A stretch of DNA of 32,000 nt from Promethearchaeota archaeon (GTDB lineage: Archaea; Asgardarchaeota; Hermodarchaeia; Hermodarchaeales; Hermodarchaeaceae), in assembly GCA_048938295.1 (NCBI GenBank), contig JBHLMI010000008.1, positions 30,001 to 62,000 of the forward strand, written 5' to 3'. This document shows positions 7,192 to 18,648 of this stretch, piece after piece. Each line of letters starts with the position of its first letter. Positions within the stretch are counted from its first letter, which is position 1. Under the pieces are notes generated by a model that saw only the letters and a program-made list of their open reading frames with translations, was not told the origin of the DNA and did no database searches. Both the position numbers and the translations under genes were made by a program.

Positions 7192-10100
7192 ATGTCTTCA
7201 TACGAGCGAGACCCAAATACCGTCAACGGTGACGACGAGCCACGGTTTCGACTCTTTTTTGAAAATGCGCCCCTCTATTGTTATATGGTTTCACCTCAGG
7301 GAATCATTCTGGACATTAACAAAGCTGCTCTCAAGGTGTTAGGTTACACACGAACAGAACTAATTGGCAAACACATTCGCTCTATCTACGCACCAGAATG
7401 TGAGGATAAGGCTAAAGATCTGTTTATTTCGTGGGAGAATGAGGGTACAATTACTGATGAAGAGCTCATTATCCAAACTAAAACTGGTGAACAGCGTATC
7501 GTTCTCTTAAATGCGAACGCGATTCACGAATCTGATGGATCCTTAGCCTATTCGATTTCGATTCAGCAAGATATCACTGAGTTAAGACAAAAGAAAGATG
7601 AGCTCAAGGAAAGCCAAAATGCTTTGAAAAAATCTGAAAAGGAAAAATCTGTGATTCTGGATAATATTTCAGAACACGTTATCTTTCAAGATTTGGAGAA
7701 CCACATCATTTGGGCTAACCGTGCTGCTGCTGAATCGGTGAACAGCAGTGTAGAGGAACTTGTTGGTAAAAACTGCTATGAAGTGTGGAACCAGCGAGAT
7801 ACACCCTGTATTGAGTGCCCTATCGTCATGGCTAGGGAAACCGGTGTTATTCAAGAACATGAGATGCGTACACCTAACGGTCGTGTATGGCATGTGCGTG
7901 GGTATCCACTTTATGATGAGAGTGACACTTTAATCGGTTGTGTTGAGGTCACTCGTGACATCACAGAGCGAACGAGGGTTGAAGAAGCGTATCACAAACT
8001 TGTTGATCAATCAATTCAAGGTCTATTAATTATCCAAAATGGAAAGGTCGCCTTCGCGAATCCAGCGTTTCTCCGAATAAGTGGCTATACAGAGGAAGAA
8101 GTCTTAGCCTTTAGTCCCTGGCAGATATTTGATATCATTCATCCGGATGATCGGAATGTTCCCTGGGAACAGCTGCAGAAAATCATACAGGGCGAACCGG
8201 TTTCAACTACCATGGAGTTGCGTGGAATTCTAAAGGATGGTACCGAACGCTGGTTTGAACTTTCATTAGCTGTTATCGAATACCAAGGTCAACTGTCAAC
8301 GCAAGTAACGATTATGGATATCGACGAGCGTAAAATGATTGAAGAAGCAATCCGACTCGAAAGGGATTGGGCTCAACGGTATTTGGACATGGCAGGGGTC
8401 ATGTTCATTGCTGTTGATACAAAAGGGAATATCACTTTAGTTAATCAAAAGGCCCTCGAGATTTTTGGATACTCAGAAGAGGAAATGATAGAACAGAACT
8501 ACTTCGATTTGTGTATACCTGAGTCATTACGTGCTGAAATGAAAGGGAAATTCCGCGCTAACATGGCTGGAGAAATTGAACCACGTGCTTTTGTTGAGAA
8601 CCCAATCATTACCAAAGACGGCGCAGAAAGACTCGTATCATGGCACACCACTATGTTCTATGATCCCTCCGGAAATCCGATTGGTGCCCTAACAGCAGGA
8701 GAAGACATAACTGAACGCAGATTTGCAGAGAATCTACTACGAAAAGAAAGGGATCGAGCTCAACAATACTTGGATATGGCAGGCGCTGCATTTATCGGAG
8801 TGGATAGGAATCAAAATATTTTTCTCGTTAATAGAAAAGGCTGCGAGATTTTTAGCTACTCAGAAGCTGAACTTTATGGTCAGAATTACTTCGACTTATG
8901 CATCCCTGAAAGACTTCGTGAGGAAATGAAAGACCGATTTGAACGGGCCATGGTAGGAACATTTCAGTTAAGCGAATATGTTGAAAATCCTATTAAGACT
9001 AAACAAGGCACCGAGCGGATGATTCTTTGGCATACTACTGTACTTGAAGATGAGGAAGGAAATAAAACAGGGATCCTGAGTTCTGGAGAAGACATTACGG
9101 AAAGAAAATTTGCAGAAGAAGCTCTGCGCGCCTCAGAGGAAAAATTCCGTTCTCTTGTAGAGGACACCACGGATTGGGTATGGGAAATTAACCGTGAAGG
9201 AAGACTTGTCTATTCAAACAGTGCAGTTGAAGACATACTCGGCTATACTGCTGGACAAATCATTGGGAGATCCTTCTTCGATTATATGGATTCTACAAGT
9301 GTAGAAAATGGTGAAGTTATGTTCACTGAAACGGTTGAAAAGCAGAAACCGTTTAAGAATCTCGTGGATCGCTTCATTCACCGAGATGGTAACATTGTGA
9401 TTCTGGAAGGCAGTGGTCGACCAGTCTTTGATGAGCAGCAACATTTAATCGGTTATCGAGGGGTATGCCGTGACATCACGGAACGTATGCGGGCTGACCA
9501 AATCCTCCGAGAATCCGAATCTCGGTATCGCTCCTTAGTTGAGACATCTCCTGACGCTATTACGCTTACGAATCCAGATGGAATGATTGTCTTAGTCAAT
9601 GAACGCGCTGTTCAATTGTTGGGCTTTAATAATCCTGGTGAACTGAGAGGCAGGAATTGCTTTGATTTCATCGTCCCCGAAGAGCGAAACCGGGCCATTG
9701 AAACTTTGAAAAGCACCAAAGAGCATGGACCGTCAGTTCCCCTTCTCTTCAATCTCATTCAAAAAGATGGTAAGATTTTTCCAGCGGAGATCAGTGCCTC
9801 ACTTCTCATTGGAGCAGCGGGTAAGGCATCAGGATATATTATTGTTGCTCGTAACATCACTGAACGCAAACAAGCCGAACAAGCCTTGAGAGAGGCTAAA
9901 GCGCGGTCAGAGTTCTTCACAGACCTGATGGCCCACGACCTCAACAATATCAACCAGGCTATCCTCTCTGGAATAGAGTTACAGCTGATGAATCCAGAGC
10001 TCCCAGAAGAGCTACGTACACAACTTCAGTTATCCTTAGAGCAAGTGGAACGAAGTGCGGCTTTAATTGGACGTGTCAAGAAATTCTCAGGGATGGATGA

Positions 10101-10584
10101 AGTTCAAACCCTTATGGACATTCGCGACATAGAACCTGACTTTCGTTCTGCCTTAGAAGCAGTCAAGCAGGCTTTTCCCAAGAAGACTATCCTCGTTGAT
10201 ACCAACATTCATCCTGAAGAATTCAAAGTCTTAGCAGATGACTTCCTTGTGGATTTATTTTACAATCTCCTACACAACGCGGTGAAATTTGATCACAATG
10301 AAAAAGTCGACCTTGAAGTGAAAATCTATCCTGACACGAATAAACGTTTCCTCCGTGTAGAAATCAGCGATCATGGTCCAGGAATCCCGGGTGACTTGAA
10401 AGAGCGGATTTTTGCCCGGTACACACAAAAGGTGGGTGAGAAAGCTCAGGGATCCGGTATCGGCTTAACACTTGTTCAACGCATCATCGATCGATTTGGA
10501 GGTCAAATCTGGGTCGAAGATCGGGTCAAGGATACCTATACCCAAGGTGCAAAATTCATTTTTCTCCTCCCAATGTGGACGTGA
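7192..10584 (+). CDS. Cytosolic multi-PAS sensor histidine kinase (7 PAS + HisKA + HATPase)
   Basis: Seven PAS repeats ending in DITE-type motifs; H-box AHDLNN, N-box NLLHNAVKF, G1 DHGPGIP, G2 GSGIGL; no TM segment. Confidence 0.95.
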   Translation: MSSYERDPNTVNGDDEPRFRLFFENAPLYCYMVSPQGIILDINKAALKVLGYTRTELIGKHIRSIYAPECEDKAKDLFISWENEGTITDEELIIQTKTGEQRIVLLNANAIHESDGSLAYSISIQQDITELRQKKDELKESQNALKKSEKEKSVILDNISEHVIFQDLENHIIWANRAAAESVNSSVEELVGKNCYEVWNQRDTPCIECPIVMARETGVIQEHEMRTPNGRVWHVRGYPLYDESDTLIGCVEVTRDITERTRVEEAYHKLVDQSIQGLLIIQNGKVAFANPAFLRISGYTEEEVLAFSPWQIFDIIHPDDRNVPWEQLQKIIQGEPVSTTMELRGILKDGTERWFELSLAVIEYQGQLSTQVTIMDIDERKMIEEAIRLERDWAQRYLDMAGVMFIAVDTKGNITLVNQKALEIFGYSEEEMIEQNYFDLCIPESLRAEMKGKFRANMAGEIEPRAFVENPIITKDGAERLVSWHTTMFYDPSGNPIGALTAGEDITERRFAENLLRKERDRAQQYLDMAGAAFIGVDRNQNIFLVNRKGCEIFSYSEAELYGQNYFDLCIPERLREEMKDRFERAMVGTFQLSEYVENPIKTKQGTERMILWHTTVLEDEEGNKTGILSSGEDITERKFAEEALRASEEKFRSLVEDTTDWVWEINREGRLVYSNSAVEDILGYTAGQIIGRSFFDYMDSTSVENGEVMFTETVEKQKPFKNLVDRFIHRDGNIVILEGSGRPVFDEQQHLIGYRGVCRDITERMRADQILRESESRYRSLVETSPDAITLTNPDGMIVLVNERAVQLLGFNNPGELRGRNCFDFIVPEERNRAIETLKSTKEHGPSVPLLFNLIQKDGKIFPAEISASLLIGAAGKASGYIIVARNITERKQAEQALREAKARSEFFTDLMAHDLNNINQAILSGIELQLMNPELPEELRTQLQLSLEQVERSAALIGRVKKFSGMDEVQTLMDIRDIEPDFRSALEAVKQAFPKKTILVDTNIHPEEFKVLADDFLVDLFYNLLHNAVKFDHNEKVDLEVKIYPDTNKRFLRVEISDHGPGIPGDLKERIFARYTQKVGEKAQGSGIGLTLVQRIIDRFGGQIWVEDRVKDTYTQGAKFIFLLPMWT
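8362..9135 (+). repeat. Intragenic tandem duplication of a 129-codon PAS unit
   Basis: RDWAQRYLDMAG (8362) and RDRAQQYLDMAG (8749) are 387 nt apart; both contain QNYFDLCIPE and VENPI. Confidence 0.85.
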
Positions 10585-10661: not shown

Positions 10662-10877
10662 TTATTGTTTCCAGCGCCGCCGTGCTGCTAGCCAGCAAAT
10701 CAAGGTAAAAGCAAACAGAAAGACTCCAGTAAGCACTAACACCTCACCAAGAAACTGCAGGTTCAACAGAAAGGCTACGCCTCCTGCAACAAGGATGGTG
10801 AACCCAATCACAACAGAAAACCCGATCGCTAATCGAGATGAACCAGAAAAGGGTGTTGAGGACTCATCAGAAGACAT
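10662..10877 (-). CDS. Putative small 2-TM protein
   Basis: MSSDESSTP...LICWLAARRRWKQ; two hydrophobic helices, basic C-terminus; overlaps the possible 5' extension of the next gene. Confidence 0.45.
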   Translation of the reverse strand: MSSDESSTPFSGSSRLAIGFSVVIGFTILVAGGVAFLLNLQFLGEVLVLTGVFLFAFTLICWLAARRRWKQ

Positions 10878-11535
10878 GGAACGACCGACTCCAAGGGCCT
10901 TAATCTTATACTTGATAATTGCTGTCACTATAACCCTTTTAGTCTATTTCCTGCCCCAACCCTTCTTCCTTGCTATTCCAACTGCTATCGTCTCTGCTGG
11001 CTTACTCAGCTGGATGGGTATTCCATCCGTGGCTCTGGTCGATTGGATATCGGGAGTAGTTTATGTTTACGTGATTGGATTCCAATATTACCAAATTGTA
11101 CGGGAATGTACAGGCATCCAAGTAATTGCAGTGTTCATGGGTCTGATTCTTCCGCTGCCCCGTGGAACCTGGTCCAGGAAAATCCTTGCTGTTGTTGTTG
11201 TAACTATTCTTCTGTTTGTAGCCAACGTCTTACGAGTCGTTTTTGAAATCTGGCTCGTCTACATGGGGATTCTCCCCTGGGAACTTGCTCACTATCCCAT
11301 GAGTTTCGTTTTAGGAGTAGTAGGGGTCTTTGTCCTTTGTATCGTGGCCATTTTTCTGGTACCAGGCTTTATCGAAACCTTTGAAGATATGATTTACTAC
11401 CTTTTTCCACCAAAACCCAAGAACAGCGATGCAGTCGAATCATCAAACACAGAAAAGTCTCCTAGCAATTTTAAAAAACCAAGCCCAAACCCGATGAGAC
11501 TAAAAATCAGTAGAGGGTTCGGTTTATACTTCTAA
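10795..11535 (+). CDS. Archaeosortase/exosortase family protein (start 10795 or 10876)
   Basis: Multi-TM with Cys (IVRECTG), Arg (NVLR) and His (AHY) triad pattern. Confidence 0.8.
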   Translation: MVNPITTENPIANRDEPEKGVEDSSEDMERPTPRALILYLIIAVTITLLVYFLPQPFFLAIPTAIVSAGLLSWMGIPSVALVDWISGVVYVYVIGFQYYQIVRECTGIQVIAVFMGLILPLPRGTWSRKILAVVVVTILLFVANVLRVVFEIWLVYMGILPWELAHYPMSFVLGVVGVFVLCIVAIFLVPGFIETFEDMIYYLFPPKPKNSDAVESSNTEKSPSNFKKPSPNPMRLKISRGFGLYF

Positions 11536-11547
11536 AGGCGCATTGGC

Positions 11548-12231
11548 TTATTTTTCAGCCCATTGCAATGGCTTGGTTTCATTATAGATTAACCATCGAG
11601 TATCCACCCGAGTACCTCGAAGATGATGTAACCGAATTTTGTGTCTGAGCTGGCTTTTGTCTTCTTCATCACAGATTTCTATAACACCATCCACGGAGAA
11701 TCGCAAAGTTGCTACTACATCGTTTGTATGAACTCCTTCCTCAAGAAGGTAGATTCCAGTTACGCCACGATCCTTCACCCGAGCACAGAGGACTTGGAGG
11801 AATTTTATAACGGATAGTGGTGCTGAATAAGTCATCAAAGTTGTCAAGTTATCAAGGCAGAGGTGACCATTCTCAAGGTCAGCAATCGCTTGAAGAAGGA
11901 GTAAACTAATTGTATTCAGGTCATAGAGATTCTGAAATGAATACGGTTCTTTAGAGGGTTGAGCTGTAACACAAGAAACCCCATCAGCTATCCGAAGCTG
12001 GGAGGCTACTGGCTTTCCTCCGATTTGGCTAAGAGTCTGGCGTATTTGGGCAGGGGACCAGAGAGTCGTAGCAAAAACGGCGGGTTCTTTTACCTTTAGC
12101 CGATCAGCTAAATAGCGTAGAGCAAGGGTAGTTTTCACCACACCAGGAGGTCCAATGAGAAGTAGTTGTGATCCCCTTGGAAGCTCAAAAGCACCCTGGG
12201 GAACAAATGTTGGACTAATAAGGTCAATCAC
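11548..12231 (-). CDS. RAD55/KaiC-like ATPase, predicted inactive
   Basis: Walker A GPPGVVKT (G to V), catalytic EE replaced by LW, Walker B LCLDN, HLRG finger retained. Confidence 0.85.
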   Translation of the reverse strand: MIDLISPTFVPQGAFELPRGSQLLLIGPPGVVKTTLALRYLADRLKVKEPAVFATTLWSPAQIRQTLSQIGGKPVASQLRIADGVSCVTAQPSKEPYSFQNLYDLNTISLLLLQAIADLENGHLCLDNLTTLMTYSAPLSVIKFLQVLCARVKDRGVTGIYLLEEGVHTNDVVATLRFSVDGVIEICDEEDKSQLRHKIRLHHLRGTRVDTRWLIYNETKPLQWAEK

Positions 12232-12931
12232 TATCGATTCCTCCTTGCAGGTATAGTCCTTCTTTCCCGACCTTCATTTCGTACCATTTTGTCTCATGCT
12301 GCACTCCAATTAGACTATATATACGGAGAAACCAGTCAAGTGAGCCCTTTGGTTCAGCAACAGTCTTGGTATGAATTGACCCTTGAACCAAGGATCGAAG
12401 ATTTGTGGTCAGTTTGGCATCATGGGCTTGGTCTTCTAAGACGAGGATGAGAATTTTGTTGAGAGTAATGATGCGCTGTGCGATACTGTGAACAAAAGTC
12501 CGGATGCGTTGTTCATCAGGAGCAGACAGACTAAGTCCTGAAACCGAATCGATGATGATAACCGAACCCGGTTTCAAAAGCTTTGCTTGATCAATCATTA
12601 TTAGATTGACTTCGTTCAGATTTCCGGGATTATTAATTCGATTAAAGGCAAAGGGATCAGTGTGCATTCCAATTCTCCAGCTATAAGCGTCCACAAAATA
12701 GATGGGGAGTTTCCCCGGCTGAGCGGGGAACGGAATTCCAAAACCACGAGCTTGCTGGACAAGTGTGGAAGGTGTGTTTTCTGTGGAAAGATACAGGACA
12801 TCAAGTCCATTATTCGCTGTATCCAATGCAAATTGGAGACTAAAACATGTTTTACCCGACCCTGGTTGTCCAACTAGGACGATACTCGTTCCTTTTGGGA
12901 GCCCACCCTGTAGGATTGGGTCGAGGATCAC
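12224..12931 (-). CDS. RAD55/KaiC-like ATPase lacking the Arg finger
   Basis: GGLPKG, Walker A GQPGSGKT, STEN, Walker B IIIDS; KMRG replaced by SLIG; GTG start after GAGGGG. Confidence 0.9.
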   Translation of the reverse strand: MILDPILQGGLPKGTSIVLVGQPGSGKTCFSLQFALDTANNGLDVLYLSTENTPSTLVQQARGFGIPFPAQPGKLPIYFVDAYSWRIGMHTDPFAFNRINNPGNLNEVNLIMIDQAKLLKPGSVIIIDSVSGLSLSAPDEQRIRTFVHSIAQRIITLNKILILVLEDQAHDAKLTTNLRSLVQGSIHTKTVAEPKGSLDWFLRIYSLIGVQHETKWYEMKVGKEGLYLQGGIDSD

Positions 12932-13126
12932 GATAGCCCCCTCTGTTCTCTTATTCGCACCTCAGATTGGCTCTGTAGCCAAGTTCATAATCTAGCTCTC
13001 CTGAATGGGAATAAAGCTTTTGGGAAGTCTGTAGTTGTTCATGGTTATATTGAGGAGAGACGGAAACCTCTTAAGCCATCATCTTGGTACTTGAATAGTA
13101 GGAGACTTACTAATCGGGGGATTAGT

Positions 13127-13867
13127 GTGGCTGAAAAGACAAAATCAGGTATACCAGGCTTAGATGAAGCATTGCATGGTGGATTTCCCACAGGCTCAGT
13201 GATTCTAATTAGTGGTGGACCGGGTACCGGCAAATCCATTCTACTAAACCAGTTTCTCTTCAATGGTGCGTCACAATTCAAGGAACCTGGGATCCTCGTC
13301 TCTATGGAAGAGTCACTCGCGTCGACGATTAGGAACATGAAACAATTTGGTTGGGATATGCAAGAACTCATGGATAAAGGCTTAATCGCCTTGGTCGATG
13401 CTTCGCCAATGATACAGAATGAACGTATTGTTCTCAAACCTGAGCACCCTGTTCTTGGACGAGAAGAATTTACAATGGAATCACTACTGTCCTTGATACA
13501 TCGTGAAATTCGACGCGTGAAAGCCAAACGTGTGGCCATCGACTCGATTTCGACCCTAACCCTCCAACACAAAGACCTCTTCCGGATTCGACACGACCTG
13601 CTTAACATGGTTCGTTCCCTTCGAATGAGTCAAGCCACCTGCTTGGTGGCAGTGGAAAGCCCCAACGAAGATAGCATCGGACGATTTGACGTCGAAGGCT
13701 TCCTTATGGACGGAGTCATTATGATGAAACTCATGAGCCAGGGAGCGATCCGCATACGAACTATCGAAATTAACAAAATGCGTGGAACAAACCATCAAAT
13801 GAATCCCCTACTCCTCATAATTGGAGAAAAAGGCATTCAAGTCTCCGACCTACCACCCATTCAATAA
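13127..13867 (+). CDS. Single-domain KaiC/RAD55-like ATPase, catalytically intact
   Basis: SGIPGLD...GG, GGPGTGKS, SMEES, VAIDS, KMRG; GTG start at 13127 after GGGGG. Confidence 0.93.
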   Translation: MAEKTKSGIPGLDEALHGGFPTGSVILISGGPGTGKSILLNQFLFNGASQFKEPGILVSMEESLASTIRNMKQFGWDMQELMDKGLIALVDASPMIQNERIVLKPEHPVLGREEFTMESLLSLIHREIRRVKAKRVAIDSISTLTLQHKDLFRIRHDLLNMVRSLRMSQATCLVAVESPNEDSIGRFDVEGFLMDGVIMMKLMSQGAIRIRTIEINKMRGTNHQMNPLLLIIGEKGIQVSDLPPIQ

Positions 13868-13964
13868 CCTCGATGAAAAATACCAGAATGAACCGACTAG
13901 CTTAAATCTCAACAAATGAAAGGAAATACCTGAGGGAAAAATCAACTGGGTTTGGTGACAAAAA

Positions 13965-14504
13965 ATGCGCCCCCAAAGCAGCCGTTACATGTTCAAGGTT
14001 TCGGTAATTGGCGATTACGCCGTGGGAAAAACCTCCCTAATTAAACGTTATATGACGGATTCCTTTGATGAAGGGTATAAAGCAACTCTTGGCGCTGCTA
14101 TTTCCTCGTTCCAAACCAGCGTAAAGGGATCTGATGTCGCGCTGCAAGTTTGGGATCTAGCAGGCCAAACCTCCTTCCGTAGAGTTCGGGTACAATATCT
14201 ATTCGGCACTGATTTCGCGATCGTGGTATTCGATTTAACAAGAAAAGATTCTTTGGACTGTGTTAAAGAATGGGTGAGTGATGTAAGGCAGGGTGCGCCT
14301 GAAGTACTCCTATTCCTTGTTGGTAATAAGGCAGATTTGAAGGAAGATCGAGTGGTGAACCCTGTGGCTGCTGAGAAAGTCGGAAAAAGTTTGAATATGC
14401 TTGGCTACCTTGAGACCTCCGCAAAGGAAGGAACCAATGTCAAAGAACTCTTTCACATCATTTCCGAATACCTCTTAGAACATACATTCACTGTAATAAA
14501 ATGA
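13965..14504 (+). CDS. Rab-like small GTPase (Ras superfamily)
   Basis: G1 GDYAVGKTS, G2 T (KATLG), G3 WDLAGQ, G4 NKAD, G5 ETSAK; no C-terminal Cys. Confidence 0.95.
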   Translation: MRPQSSRYMFKVSVIGDYAVGKTSLIKRYMTDSFDEGYKATLGAAISSFQTSVKGSDVALQVWDLAGQTSFRRVRVQYLFGTDFAIVVFDLTRKDSLDCVKEWVSDVRQGAPEVLLFLVGNKADLKEDRVVNPVAAEKVGKSLNMLGYLETSAKEGTNVKELFHIISEYLLEHTFTVIK

Positions 14505-15979
14505 CAAAAAAGGTGCTCGAACGCGTGACACTCCCAAGGGAAATCACTGAATTCCTGAACGAGGAACAGGGACAAACTCTACTCATCAAAGGAAAATCAG
14601 GAACTGGAAAATCCACACTAGCCTTATCCTTACTTGGTCATCTAGCCGAGACCCTACCTAAGAAATTCAGTGTTGAAAACTTTGTGTACCTTTCAACGCG
14701 TGTTGCAAGCTCGAGTCTGAAATCCCAATTTCCTTGGGCGTTTCAATTGCTTTCAGAAAATCAAATCATCGATGCGACACCATCGCTCATGGGGCTTCCT
14801 GAAACCACCTTAGCGTGTGGGGAGTCATCTAACAATCGGATGGTGTACTCCGATGAGTTGACGTTCATTAGCGCAGTAAATGATCGATTGCGGAACTTGA
14901 CCAATCCTGTGTGTGTCATTGACTCATTTGATGCGATTATCGAAGCCGCGCAAGCTGACCCCCAGCGCCTGACAAGCGCATTAACGAATCTTGGTCGCAT
15001 CCTATGCGGTAAAATCATTCTTATTGTCGAAGGTATTGAGGAGTCGACGTTAGATCATATAGTCGATGGTATTGTATGCGTCACTAAGGAATTCACGGCA
15101 GAGCGGATGTGGCGTAGTCTTCGGCTAATCAAGCTCCGTGGTACGCCAATTGATCAAAGTATGCGAGGATTTTCTCTTCGGGGGAGTCGTTTTACCATTT
15201 TGCATTCATTTGATGCAGAACAAGCCAACCGCGTATCAGATTTCGAGGTCATCGCCCACTCTGGTGGTCGATTTTCGTCAGGAGTCCCAGAACTAGATAC
15301 GGTTTTTGGCGGTTTCAGACGAGGAAGCACATTCTTCATTGATGTCGCCGAAGGCGTCGCCAACGAAACGGTTCACAGTCTAATCTTCAGCATGGTGGCG
15401 AACTTCCTACGCCAAGACAGCGGTGTTGTCATTGTTCCACCAAACAAACTGAGCTTCCGGCGACTCAAAGCAGCCTCACTTCGCTACGGATTTGTCGACC
15501 AACTCAACACACGCCTCCGCTTCTTCGCAAGTGCAGCGACTAGCCTAGGCGTTTCTAGTGCAACTGGAGAACTTGGTGAACCATATTACAAAACCGTGGC
15601 ATTCCGTGAAAGCTCTGATCTTGAGAATGCTTGGAGTATGGTGGTAGAAGAACTCAGAAATCAAGGGTGCAAAAACTTACTAAGCGTAGTAGGCTTTGGT
15701 TGGTTGCATTCATGGTTAGGCCCAACCGAATTACCACGTTGGGCTACGCGGATTGCCAATGATACCGCTACGGAAAGTAACCTAGCAGTCACCATAGGCT
15801 ATAGCAGTACAAAGGATATAAACCGATATCTGGCAGATTTAGCAGACATTCACGTTCAGTTAGCAGTAAAGGAAGGAGTCACAGTCTTTCATGGAATCAA
15901 TCCCTCGACTCCTCAATACTGCATCTACACACACCTTGTGGAGGGAAACCCACAAATTGGCTTCCAAGAAATCGGATAA
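14501..15979 (+). CDS. GvpD-like tandem RecA/RAD55-fold protein (N-domain with intact P-loop, degenerate C-domain)
   Basis: TLPREITEFL...TLLIKGKSGTGKS, VIDS, KLRG; second domain SSGVPELD..GG without P-loop; ATGA overlap with the GTPase. Confidence 0.75.
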   Translation: MTKKVLERVTLPREITEFLNEEQGQTLLIKGKSGTGKSTLALSLLGHLAETLPKKFSVENFVYLSTRVASSSLKSQFPWAFQLLSENQIIDATPSLMGLPETTLACGESSNNRMVYSDELTFISAVNDRLRNLTNPVCVIDSFDAIIEAAQADPQRLTSALTNLGRILCGKIILIVEGIEESTLDHIVDGIVCVTKEFTAERMWRSLRLIKLRGTPIDQSMRGFSLRGSRFTILHSFDAEQANRVSDFEVIAHSGGRFSSGVPELDTVFGGFRRGSTFFIDVAEGVANETVHSLIFSMVANFLRQDSGVVIVPPNKLSFRRLKAASLRYGFVDQLNTRLRFFASAATSLGVSSATGELGEPYYKTVAFRESSDLENAWSMVVEELRNQGCKNLLSVVGFGWLHSWLGPTELPRWATRIANDTATESNLAVTIGYSSTKDINRYLADLADIHVQLAVKEGVTVFHGINPSTPQYCIYTHLVEGNPQIGFQEIG

Positions 15980-16337
15980 GATTCGCATCCTATTAGCAGA
16001 TGATTCACCACACTTTCTCCGTTCAGCTCAGCTACTCCTTCGTGACTATGATATTGAAACTGCACTTGATGGGGAAGAGGCTCTCGCTAAACTTAAGGCT
16101 AATCCACCAGACATCTTCTTCGTGGACCTAGTACTGCCAAAAATTCGGGGTACCGACCTCATTCGCCTAGTCTCAAAGGAGTACCCTGACATTGCCATTG
16201 TCGCTTTGACTGCTATCGATGATCATGAAACTGTACAAGAAGTCATGGATTTAGGTGCAAAAGGTTATCTGATTAAGCCTGTATCATCGGATACCTTCAA
16301 GACAGAAATCAAGAAACATACCGAGTCTAGCGATTAA
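15957..16337 (+). CDS. Stand-alone response regulator receiver
   Basis: ADDS, phosphoacceptor VDL, ALT, IKP; probable TTG start at 15957 after GGAGGG, overlapping upstream stop. Confidence 0.92.
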   Translation: MASKKSDKIRILLADDSPHFLRSAQLLLRDYDIETALDGEEALAKLKANPPDIFFVDLVLPKIRGTDLIRLVSKEYPDIAIVALTAIDDHETVQEVMDLGAKGYLIKPVSSDTFKTEIKKHTESSD

Positions 16338-16348
16338 TCACTTAATAT

Positions 16349-16738
16349 CTACTTGAGGTCCTCGATGGTTCGTCCAGTCTTTTTGAGATATTCTTCAATG
16401 GCTTTATGTAGACCATCTGCAGCCAAGTTAGAGCAGTGCATTTTGATTGGAGGGAGGCCTTCGAGATTATCTGCGACGTCGCTACGGGTTATCTGGTAGG
16501 CTTCTTTTAGAGTCTTGCCCTTTGTGATTTCAGTCACCATGCTCGAAGTGGCGATGGCGGCTGCACATCCAAAGGTCTTGAAGCTGATATCAGTGATGAT
16601 ATCATCTTTAACTTTGATGTAAATCCAGATGAGGTCTCCACACGTTGGGTTCCCAACTTTTCCTATTGCATCGGCATCTTCCATTTCTCCCATATTTCGT
16701 GGATGGGTGAAATGTTCCATTACTTTTTCACTGTACAT
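16349..16738 (-). CDS. iscU: Fe-S scaffold IscU/NifU
   Basis: GNPTCGD, FGCAAAIA, LPPIKMHCS. Confidence 0.97.
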   Translation of the reverse strand: MYSEKVMEHFTHPRNMGEMEDADAIGKVGNPTCGDLIWIYIKVKDDIITDISFKTFGCAAAIATSSMVTEITKGKTLKEAYQITRSDVADNLEGLPPIKMHCSNLAADGLHKAIEEYLKKTGRTIEDLK

Positions 16739-16764
16739 TTTTGGTTCATCTCCTTTTCTGGTGC

Positions 16765-17976
16765 TTAATGGTGATGTTCATGCTCTTCGTCTTCGAAGAG
16801 TTCATAGGGTACATCCTTTGAAAGTGGTGACATTGCCCTTAGTTTTTTGACGATTGGCGGAAGCACTTCGACAAATCGATCGACTTGTACTTGAGTGTTT
16901 TCACGTCCAAGCGTGAGTTGGAGAGCGCCATGGGCTTCAGCTTCGGATACACCCATGCTGATTAAGCAATGAGAGGGTGCAAGTGTCCTAGAGGTACAGG
17001 CGGAGCTGGTAGCAACCAGAAAGCCCTGGAAACTCAGATGCAGAGTTATTGACTCGCCCTCAATATAGCTAAACCGGATGTTAGCGTTATTCGGTAATCG
17101 TTTTGTCGGATGTCCATTTAGATAAGCCTCATCAATTTCGTCGAGTACCCCTTTTATCAAGCTATCGCGTAGCTTTGAGAGGTGCTTAGCATCTTCTGGT
17201 TGCTGCTTTGTTGCAATCTCAGCAGCCTGTCCCATTCCAACAATCCCCGGGACATTTTCTGATCCTGATCGGATTCCATATTCTTGTCCTCCACCGAGGA
17301 TGATGGTTTGAACTGCATTGCCTTTCTTTACGAAAAGAGCACCGACGCCTTTGGGACCATAAAGATCATTTGAAGAAAGCGTCAGTAAGGAAATGTTCTG
17401 TTCAGAGACGTTAATGGGAATTTGACCTGCACTAGCGACAGCATCCACGTGTAGTGGAATATCAGCCGTTGAGGCGATTTTTCCAATTTCAGCTAATGGC
17501 TGGATTGTACCAACTTCATTATTGGCGTGTTGAATTGAAATGAGTATGGTATGGTCAGTTATAGCCTCTTTGAGGGCGGTTGTGTCCACTAACCCATATT
17601 TGTCAACAGGCACCAGGGTCGATTCAAAACCCTGTTTGTTAAGAAACTTCATAGTGTTGATGATGCTAAGGTGCTCAACCTGTGAGATGATGATGTGATT
17701 CCCTTTTCGGCGGTGAAGATAAGCATAGCCTTGCAGTGCTAAATTGTTGGCCTCTGTGGCTCCACTGGTGAAGATAATACGATCCTTCGCATCCGCACCA
17801 ATTAGTTGCGCCACTTGAACCCGGGCATTCTCAACAGCCTTTGCTGATTGTTGCCCTACCATATGCACGGAACCCGGATTTCCATAGTATGTGCGGAAAT
17901 ACGGTTGCATAGCTGCAAGGACTCGTTCATCGACCGGGACTCCAGCACTATGATTGAAGTTGACCTGTTCGACCAT
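16765..17976 (-). CDS. iscS: IscS-family protein with PLP Lys replaced by Asp
   Basis: FTSGATEANN, HANNEVG, SSNDLYGPKG, SSACTS; probable ATG at 17976. Confidence 0.93.
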   Translation of the reverse strand: MVEQVNFNHSAGVPVDERVLAAMQPYFRTYYGNPGSVHMVGQQSAKAVENARVQVAQLIGADAKDRIIFTSGATEANNLALQGYAYLHRRKGNHIIISQVEHLSIINTMKFLNKQGFESTLVPVDKYGLVDTTALKEAITDHTILISIQHANNEVGTIQPLAEIGKIASTADIPLHVDAVASAGQIPINVSEQNISLLTLSSNDLYGPKGVGALFVKKGNAVQTIILGGGQEYGIRSGSENVPGIVGMGQAAEIATKQQPEDAKHLSKLRDSLIKGVLDEIDEAYLNGHPTKRLPNNANIRFSYIEGESITLHLSFQGFLVATSSACTSRTLAPSHCLISMGVSEAEAHGALQLTLGRENTQVQVDRFVEVLPPIVKKLRAMSPLSKDVPYELFEDEEHEHHH

Positions 17977-18010
17977 ATTACATCTCTCCAAATTACTCGT
18001 TTATTAACCG

Positions 18011-18373
18011 TTAGAAAGTTAGTATTGCATCAGCTTCTAAAGCAAGGTCATTGAGGGTTGCTGATCCAACAACTCCACATTCTTTCACGTAACCACCACG
18101 TTCAATGCCTAACATTTGTGTGCTTTGGTCACAAGCCATGAGCTTGACACCAGCTTCGATAGCCTGGTCGATAACTTCATTTAGCGGAGGGAAGTTCCCC
18201 ATCTTGATTTTTTCAGCTTCCCCTTGCTTCATGACCGTCACGCCTTTTATTAGAAAATAGATAGTGGCATCAATATCCATTGTTCTAGCTGTGGTGGCTA
18301 ATACAAACGGAGCATAAAGCCGATGAGGCTCATCTGTTCCGCTTGTTACTACATACAAGATTTTTTTAGGCAT
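18011..18373 (-). CDS. DsrE/DsrF-like sulfur carrier / peroxiredoxin-like protein
   Basis: YFLIKGV...GVKLMAC pattern; ATG at 18373 after GAGGTG. Confidence 0.85.
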   Translation of the reverse strand: MPKKILYVVTSGTDEPHRLYAPFVLATTARTMDIDATIYFLIKGVTVMKQGEAEKIKMGNFPPLNEVIDQAIEAGVKLMACDQSTQMLGIERGGYVKECGVVGSATLNDLALEADAILTF

Positions 18374-18378
18374 TTTTT

Positions 18379-18648
18379 TCACCTCTCAGTCTTTTGAACC
18401 AGGAACCGGAGATAGTCATCACAATGTTCGATTTTTAAAATCGTGTTACCTGTGCGTTTTGCCCATCTTGAGATGTCTTCTTCTGAGGCAGGATCGTCAG
18501 CTAACACTTCAACAACTTCATCGAGTTTTGCCTCTAGCACTGCCTGCCTGGTCTTATACACAGGAATTGGACAATACAAACCCCGTGCGTCAACCGTATG
18601 GTGGATTTCGACCTTGTCGCTTGTTGATTTCTTTGATTCGTCCAACAT
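18379..18648 (-). CDS. tusA: TusA/SirA sulfur carrier
   Basis: DARGLYCPIP (CPxP), LADDP...DI..WA. Confidence 0.92.
   Translation of the reverse strand: MLDESKKSTSDKVEIHHTVDARGLYCPIPVYKTRQAVLEAKLDEVVEVLADDPASEEDISRWAKRTGNTILKIEHCDDYLRFLVQKTER

Follow-up and report, generated by a model that had tools for sequence, protein, structure and literature searches.

Results

A Rab-like GTPase, a GvpD-like NTPase and a receiver encoded side by side

The locus described here lies in a 32,000-nucleotide stretch of DNA from a Promethearchaeota archaeon (the window, G000:C50:30001-62000, from a 2.5 Mb genome that is 92% complete), whose close relatives are deposited as Hermodarchaeota or Promethearchaeota metagenome-assembled genomes (MAGs). 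It encodes, one after the other on the forward strand, a soluble Rab-like small GTPase, a GvpD-like nucleoside triphosphatase (NTPase) of the KaiC fold and a stand-alone CheY-like receiver (Table 1). The three genes were called from the open reading frame (ORF) listing and from Pfam matches to Ras, to GvpD_P-loop and GvpD_bR2, and to Response_reg, respectively, and agree with the three ORFs proposed in a sequence-only reading of the same DNA. In the comparisons below, the genus of the window belongs to family f1, g2 is its sister genus, f6, f14, f18, f23 and f28 are other families, and L and G numbers denote loci and genomes.

The GTPase matches Pfam Ras with an E-value of 4e-45 (153.7 bits against a cut-off of 21.6) and carries the complete G1 to G5 set (GDYAVGKT, Thr41, DLAGQ, NKAD and SAK), which places it in the Ras superfamily. 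The catalytic Gln68 is invariant, and the segments LQVWD and VVFDLT are present. The same motifs, without a C-terminal cysteine, are found in 18 orthologues, so that the description given by the sequence-only reading (all G motifs, both segments, no prenylation Cys) holds throughout the alignment; the C-terminal Cys expected of a prenylated eukaryotic Rab occurs in 0 of 19 aligned proteins, that of the window ending in ...EHTFTVIK. The best matches among solved structures, from a search of the PDB, are Rab6, Ypt6, Rab43, Rab35 and Rab1, and fungal Ryh1/Rab6, 43-45% identical, is among the nearest proteins outside the orthologue series of the GTPase itself. LQVWDLAGQ is similar to RabF2 and VVFDLT to RabF5, the positions of RabF1, F3 and F4 being divergent. 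Judged by sequence similarity, "Rab-like, soluble" seems a fair label.

The GvpD-like protein passes the Pfam cut-offs of both GvpD families, GvpD_P-loop (2.6e-13, 50.7 bits against 24) and GvpD_bR2 (3.8e-8, 33.6 bits against 27.9), which makes it a member of the GvpD family by sequence, and it also matches Pfam KaiC. Its AlphaFold2 (AF2) model, with a predicted local distance difference test (pLDDT) score of 86, displays two RecA-like domains, and Foldseek aligns this tandem with full-length KaiC over about 500 columns (E 4e-24); the template modelling (TM) score of only about 0.4 is due to a different orientation of the domains. Walker A, the Walker B Asp and KLRG are all retained in the N domain, but the catalytic Glu is not, since LS(S/T)RV aligns with TFEES, the segment of KaiC that holds the catalytic EE. 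In the C domain the P-loop is missing, the sequence being GFRRGSTFF...EGVxNE where GxxGxGKT would be expected. In these respects the protein departs from KaiC of the circadian type, which has the catalytic Glu pair and a Walker A in both domains. It would still bind nucleotide, as Walker A, Walker B and the arginine finger are in place, but in the absence of the catalytic Glu a role as a switch or adaptor that depends on nucleotide is more likely than one as a fast ATPase.

The receiver matches Pfam Response_reg (3e-23, 82.4 bits) and is CheY-like in that its phospho-acceptor set is intact, comprising DD (LLADD), Asp (FVDLVLP), Thr (ALTA) and Lys (IKP). A histidine kinase gene with an H-box and a HATPase_c domain belongs to the same conserved cluster and is located 5 kb upstream, and the PAS kinase recurs in the orthologous clusters of g2, L129 and the f6 genome G145. 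Given that receivers and kinases are few in this genome and that each of the other two good receivers has its own kinase gene at a distance of no more than about 4 kb, this PAS kinase is likely the cognate of the receiver, and phosphotransfer between the two is predicted. Within the kinase, Pfam HisKA went undetected and HATPase_c alone was found; its orthologues measure 1446 residues in g2 and only 616 in L129.

Table 1. Features of the locus, and archaeosortase-like orthologues on related contigs. Positions are those of the window unless a locus is named.
Feature	Position	Strand	Basis or remark
Cytoplasmic PAS histidine kinase, 1130 aa; 7 PAS, H-box MAHDLNN, HATPase_c	7192..10584	+	Pfam, translation
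Archaeosortase/exosortase-family polytopic membrane protein	10795..11535	+	NCBIfam TIGR04178, 43.5 bits against a cut-off of 23
Single-domain KaiC-like protein, KaiC and DUF7504, degenerate P-loop GPPGVVKT	11548..12231	-	Pfam, translation
Single-domain KaiC-like ATPase	12224..12931	-	Pfam KaiC 3.8e-28; 8-nt overlap with downstream KaiC-like gene
Single-domain KaiC ATPase; Walker A, EE and KMRG intact	13091..13867	+	Pfam KaiC 9e-66
TTAAAT, TATA-box-like	13902..13907	+	Conserved about 58 nt before GTPase ATG
GGTGA, Shine-Dalgarno-like	13954..13958	+	6 nt before GTPase ATG; GGTG kept in window and 10 close relatives
Soluble Rab-like small GTPase, 179 aa	13965..14504	+	ORF, Pfam Ras, orthologue alignment
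AAGGTG, Shine-Dalgarno	14510..14515	+	9 nt before conserved GvpD-like start; orthologue comparison
GvpD-like tandem KaiC-fold NTPase, 484 aa from conserved GTG	14525..15979	+	Pfam, orthologue starts, AF2, Foldseek
GGAGG, Shine-Dalgarno-like for receiver, within GvpD-like 3' end	15940..15944	+	Window, 10 close relatives, L129
Stand-alone CheY-like receiver, 126 aa, TTG start	15957..16337	+	ORF, Pfam, orthologue alignment
Archaeosortase-like orthologue upstream of GTPase	L127 72-662
Archaeosortase-like orthologue upstream of GTPase	L130 677-1345
Archaeosortase-like orthologue upstream of GTPase	L133 1741-2160

Gene junctions and expression signals

The junctions were compared over 15 orthologous loci, the genus level being represented by 11 (the window and 10 close relatives). 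At all 11 the TATA-box-like element has the conserved form GCTTAAAT, with one mismatch in L005, and L129 has CTTAAAT at this position; the spacer around it is otherwise variable, and the element precedes the GTPase gene and not the GvpD-like gene. Such conservation within a variable spacer supports a promoter that would serve the GTPase, GvpD-like and receiver genes in this order.

The start of the GvpD-like gene is set by position 14525, which is GTG, ATG or TTG in 15/15 orthologues and opens an N-terminus of the form M-[TSA]-LP-x-E. AAGGTG or AGGTG stands 9 nt before it at 10 of the 11 genus-level loci and at L129, L005 having GGAG instead. An ATG equivalent to that at 14501, from which the protein would count 492 residues, exists in the window and in one relative only, and the frame upstream of 14525 is closed by stop codons in four relatives. 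On this orthologue comparison the ATG at 14501 was rejected in favour of the GTG. The real junction between the two genes is therefore likely a 20-nt spacer with a Shine-Dalgarno motif rather than a 4-nt ATGA overlap. Across the genus this spacer measures 14-26 nt, which is tight enough for co-transcription and probably for coupled translation.

The GvpD-like gene, with its stop at 15979, overlaps the receiver gene by 23 nt. The receiver TTG is conserved in all orthologues including those of other families, and in several it is the first possible start; the overlap itself persists in g2 and in f6. GGAGG lies 12 nt upstream of the TTG, and more distant orthologues have AGAGG or GAAGGG. An ATG at 15891 was rejected as the receiver start, being missing in many orthologues.

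A transcription unit running from the GTPase through the GvpD-like gene to the receiver is probable in view of the genus-wide TATA-like box, the Shine-Dalgarno motifs, the short genus-level spacers and the conserved overlap. The sequence-only reading had anticipated several of these signals. Its 23-nt overlap stands; its TTAAAT box, set at 13903-13908, is present and conserved in the genus but lies one base earlier; and its ATGA at 14501-14504, taken as a site of translational coupling, is there in the sequence but is probably not where the two genes join.

The surrounding island

The three-gene unit that had been proposed fits these signals, but it forms part of a larger island and is not an obligate trio. 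The unit also takes in the 7xPAS kinase, the archaeosortase-like gene and the three KaiC paralogues, each of one domain. The KaiC gene next to the GTPase encodes a protein 71-94% identical across family f1, and in g2 and G145 it stands directly upstream of the GvpD-like gene. Every Hermodarchaeota version of the locus has an archaeosortase-like gene, and orthologues of the window protein are called Exosortase_EpsH; besides TIGR04178, the window protein gives weak matches to heimdallarchaeosortase and ArtH.

On the other side, a string of IscU, NifS/IscS, DsrE and TusA genes (16349-18648 in the window) runs convergent to the receiver, the stop codons lying 11 nt apart, and is found at all Hermodarchaeota loci. 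No other neighbour is as conserved as this string (IscU 79-98% identical); the GTPase has diverged much more quickly (56-82%).

The earlier statement that no roadblock or longin gene occurs in the window can be widened for Roadblock/LC7 to the whole of contig C50, which holds none of the 14 Robl_LC7 matches of the genome; the locus thus has no adjacent Roadblock-GTPase module, and longin was not searched. Pfam identified no gvp-like genes in the window, and a search of the genome for Gas_vesicle (PF00741) gave no match, nor did it in the control genomes. Rfam returned zero matches within the window. The 2.5 Mb genome as a whole has only 3-4 receiver domains and about 6 HATPase_c genes, whereas matches number 29 for the Ras superfamily, 14 for Roadblock and 10 for the KaiC family.

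Conservation among Hermodarchaeota and in family f6

The whole block is intact at ten loci of the genus (75-95% identity), but as IscU and NifS on its flank are kept too, conservation of the block at genus level says little. Beyond the genus, identity of the GTPase orthologues, retrieved from 5.8 billion proteins, drops from 72-100% to a next tier of 56-67% and then to 45% or less. Within that tier, L124, L131 and L132 have KaiC, GTPase and, after 179-193 nt, the GvpD-like gene, followed by the receiver in L124 and L131; the L132 contig stops inside the GvpD-like gene. L125 has the GTPase, then after 388 nt the GvpD-like gene and the receiver. The GTPase keeps its position not only in the genus but also in L129, L125 and clade B, with identities as low as 56-67%. 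L125 and L126 are near-identical contigs from different metagenome sources, and L126 has a GvpD-like ORF of 394 residues and an extra ORF of 65, probably owing to a frameshift or an assembly difference.

In g2, where the GvpD-like protein is 58% identical to that of the window, the cluster comprises the kinase, the archaeosortase-like gene and two KaiC genes, and then KaiC, GvpD-like and receiver genes in a row, the gap between the last KaiC and the GvpD-like gene being only 89-130 nt. Family f6 shows two arrangements. In G145, PAS kinases are followed by a reverse-strand series in which KaiC precedes the GvpD-like gene and the receiver, and by a forward series of two KaiC genes and a GTPase. 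In G223 the GTPase gene is divergent from a GvpD-like gene that leads into a receiver. The GTPases of G145 and G223 are mutually orthologous with 100% support and do not group with that of the window. A quick IQ-TREE analysis of the GvpD-like proteins groups the window, three g2 and two f6 sequences together with 100% support, and each of the 6 genes has an overlapping receiver. As far as gene content goes, the conserved core is KaiC, GvpD-like protein and receiver, with the PAS kinase, and the GTPase is the variable part.

GTPase genes beside GvpD-like genes in other Asgard archaea

A six-frame search of 301 Asgard genomes detected GvpD-like relatives in 86, often as several paralogues. From 128 matches we chose 65 GvpD-like genes of 35 genomes and examined about 5 kb on each side (less at contig ends) with hidden Markov models built from paralogues of G000 itself. 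Counting the window, a Ras-like GTPase gene lies within 1.3 kb of the GvpD-like gene in 16/66 cases. After collapsing, under an "any member" rule that favours large clusters, 5/19 clusters are positive at 40% identity and 8/31 at 50%. Chance would give about 3-4%, from a GTPase density of one per 83-173 kb, and the binomial P for the collapsed clusters is about 7e-4 to 2e-5 at p = 0.04; the positive rate would be about 12% if every unfetched match were negative.

The arrangements differ between families. The GvpD-like gene is followed by the GTPase gene after 4-18 nt in five f23 and two f14 genomes, which represent two separate GvpD-like clades; it is convergent with the gene of a 304-residue GTPase-domain protein in two f18 clades; and in G038, also of f18, the order is GvpD-like, KaiC, GTPase. 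In f28, a Roadblock-Ras fusion is followed by CYTH, GvpD-like and Rce1-like genes. This recurrence across Asgard clades supports, at the level of gene order, a functional link between GTPase and GvpD-like protein.

Some of these loci have further features. The G038 locus (L058, 2114-11441) is flanked by two TackOD1-domain proteins, one of them fused to an AsnC-type helix-turn-helix (HTH), and by a RagA-like GTPase. At the f28 locus of G239 (L093, 3309-7731) the four genes share one strand, the Roadblock/LC7-Ras fusion measures 316 residues, and a Rce1-like CAAX protease near a GTPase is a curious find. At the f23 locus of G212 (L061, 2590-9364) the GvpD-like gene is followed after 18 nt by the Ras-like GTPase and then by a 428-residue RagA/Gtr1-like GTPase, and a second RagA-like protein of 504 residues is encoded 1.8 kb upstream on the opposite strand, making this a GTPase-rich island.

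Discussion

KaiC-type ATPases signal through partner proteins (PMC4858521), and the window places several members of this family beside a histidine kinase, a receiver and a eukaryote-like small GTPase. We propose, as an evenly balanced proposition, that the locus is a hybrid KaiC/two-component signalling island with the GTPase as an accessory switch and the trio as its distal operon. The island would run from the PAS kinase and the archaeosortase-like gene through two divergent KaiC-like genes to KaiC, Rab-like GTPase, GvpD-like gene and receiver, and its conserved engine would be a His-Asp phosphorelay joined to a KaiC-family hub of single-domain KaiC and the tandem GvpD-like protein. In this relay the receiver would be phosphorylated by the PAS kinase and may then dock on the GvpD-like protein, changing the nucleotide state or the oligomerisation of the latter. 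The Rab-like GTPase would have been added to the operon as a binary switch in Hermodarchaeum and its relatives, serving either as output or as input. In the first case the GvpD-like hub would determine which nucleotide the GTPase carries, where it lies or how much of it there is, in analogy to the lowering of GvpE by haloarchaeal GvpD; in the second, the GTP-bound GTPase would gate the hub. We infer all physical interactions and the direction of the signal in this scheme from gene content, co-expression signals, intact residues and recurrent adjacency. Complex prediction for the GvpD-like protein and the GTPase with GTP and Mg gave an ipSAE of 0.00 in both runs, which is evidence neither way.

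A number of observations weigh against tying the GTPase to this island. The GTPase is absent within 6-8 kb of the g2 cassette in three genomes that are 80-83% complete, and its best match anywhere in g2 genomes is only 39-45% identical, the level of a paralogue. L129 (GCA_975849785.1) has the full island with a frameshifted GTPase. Three or four contigs (L127/L128, L130, L133) have the archaeosortase-like gene followed by the GTPase, without KaiC, GvpD-like or receiver genes at the locus. The spacer between GTPase and GvpD-like gene widens to 135-388 nt in more distant orthologues. The adjacency statistics are approximate, as the loci were selected by us and relatives are not independent, and a poorly resolved tree (10/38 branches starred) does not unite the GvpD-linked GTPases in a single clade, which would fit repeated recruitment and could also result from fast divergence.

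The L129 reading frame (9001-9540) is split into ORFs of 142 and 35 residues (...METSAKDGTNV), through either pseudogenization or an assembly error. On the contigs that lack the cassette, the GTPases keep all motifs, the archaeosortase-like gene lies on the same strand 79-126 nt upstream in L127 and L130 and 223 nt upstream in L133, and a convergent IscU gene directly follows the GTPase in L127 and L130. These contigs are close kin of the cassette-bearing L124 and L131 (IscU 96-98%, NifS 87-92% and GTPase 73-82% identical), and they have lost the KaiC, GvpD-like and receiver genes while retaining the GTPase. Together with the g2 cassette that has no GTPase, they indicate that each partner can persist without the other, and the link at the window locus is plausible and demonstrably non-obligatory. 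The neighbourhood comparison had been suggested because usually unlinked orthologues would count against the pairing; most proved to be linked, but a sizeable minority is unlinked.

This modularity in both directions is what one would expect if the GTPase were a passenger, one of about 29 fast-duplicating paralogues that is co-transcribed here without a functional link and has its true partners (roadblock, longin or others) encoded elsewhere, an explanation that we consider rather unlikely. The 29 GTPase paralogues of the genome, the closest 48% identical, include the nearest relatives of the window GTPase in the tree (support 92, unstarred), to the exclusion of the f6 cluster GTPases; the 14 Roadblock matches lie elsewhere in the genome; and Asgard small GTPases are generally not encoded in operons with regulators, known GAP (GTPase-activating protein) or GEF (guanine nucleotide exchange factor) folds being rare among their operon neighbours (PMC10933270). 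A passenger would not, however, be expected to hold its position down to the 56-67% tier, nor to have independent counterparts in at least 5 other GvpD-like clades at about 5-8 times the chance rate, nor to have the promoter-like box placed before it rather than before the GvpD-like gene.

A stronger version, which we regard as improbable, is that GvpD-like NTPases form a hitherto overlooked class of proteins that partner Asgard Ras/Rab-like GTPases directly, whether as regulators, as effectors or by controlling their stability, and that at this locus link a His-Asp phosphorelay to a eukaryote-type GTP switch. The sequence-only reading had cast the GvpD-like protein as an effector, GAP or GEF of the GTPase. 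The functional link gains support from the recurrent Asgard adjacency, but that particular role stays pure inference.

It is very unlikely that the archaeosortase-like protein is the primary partner of the GTPase, for instance with the GTPase controlling or localising surface-protein processing, and that the regulatory cassette of KaiC, GvpD-like and receiver genes was inserted between the two as a separable addition. The contigs without the cassette keep just these two genes, with the G motifs intact, and the archaeosortase-like gene belongs to every Hermodarchaeota version of the locus; g2, however, has it without the GTPase, tblastn yielded no archaeosortase match at the GTPase/GvpD-like loci of f6, f23, f14 and f18, and no precedent is known for a link between a sortase and a small GTPase. 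A specific GAP or GEF activity of the GvpD-like protein towards the GTPase, for which one could cite the adjacency and, as hints of regulated hydrolysis, the invariant Gln68 and G motifs, is likewise very unlikely, given that g2 has the GvpD-like cassette without the GTPase and that no GAP or GEF with a RecA/KaiC fold is known.

The hybrid island that we propose resembles several known systems in part. Archaeal KaiC-like ATPases are reportedly signalling hubs, as put forward by Makarova, Galperin and Koonin in 2017 (mBio). The window island likewise clusters several KaiC paralogues, some of them degenerate, with a PAS kinase and a receiver; it differs by having the gene of a eukaryote-like Rab-like GTPase within the operon. 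The KaiC-REC fusions of Methanosarcinaceae (PMC5847659) offer an archaeal precedent for coupling between KaiC and a receiver. The GvpD-like protein shares the tandem RecA-like fold with cyanobacterial KaiC, and both are genetically coupled to a histidine kinase and a receiver-fold protein (SasA/CikA-RpaA and the KaiA pseudo-receiver in cyanobacteria). In contrast to cyanobacterial KaiC, however, its N domain lacks the catalytic Glu and its C domain the P-loop, no KaiB or KaiA was seen, and the window receiver, unlike the KaiA pseudo-receiver, retains the phospho-acceptor Asp.

In haloarchaea, GvpD binds GvpE and reduces the level of this protein, an effect that depends on the Walker motifs (PMC4390858). 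The window protein has both GvpD Pfam matches, the P-loop and the basic RR motifs in common with GvpD, but it shares little identity with true GvpD (Pfam E about 1e-13), and the locus has neither GvpE nor a gas-vesicle context, the neighbours being the GTPase and the receiver. The GTPase for its part is like other Asgard Rab-like GTPases and eukaryotic Rab6/Ypt6/Ryh1 in having all G motifs and in its closeness to Rab6, and differs from the eukaryotic proteins by the missing C-terminal Cys and its partial RabF motifs. It is encoded beside KaiC-type and two-component genes rather than roadblock, longin, DENN or TRAPP. With MglA/MglB and with the LAMTOR1-like/Rab-like/DENN operons of Asgard archaea (10.1101/2020.10.19.343400) the locus shares a small GTPase gene next to that of a candidate regulator; here that candidate is a RecA/KaiC-fold P-loop NTPase, and the contig has no Roadblock gene.

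KaiC hubs, GvpD, stand-alone receivers and Asgard Rab-like GTPases are each known, and their combination appears to be new; our literature search, which did not include the 2017 KaiC-hub paper, returned no paper on a GvpD-like/GTPase pairing, nor one treating KaiC, Asgard archaea and GTPases together. Asgard archaea have dozens of eukaryote-like small GTPases, almost none of them with an identified regulator or effector, and the recurrent GvpD/KaiC-type link gives an otherwise partnerless GTPase concrete candidate partners. If the link is not physical, the locus would be another lineage-specific KaiC signalling island. Should GvpD-like NTPases be direct partners after all, archaeal relatives of eukaryotes would regulate GTPases in a prokaryotic style. 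A physical link would mean that GTP switches of the archaeal relatives of eukaryotes are plugged into KaiC-type and bacterial-type two-component signalling, which would bear on the origin of eukaryotic GTPase networks.

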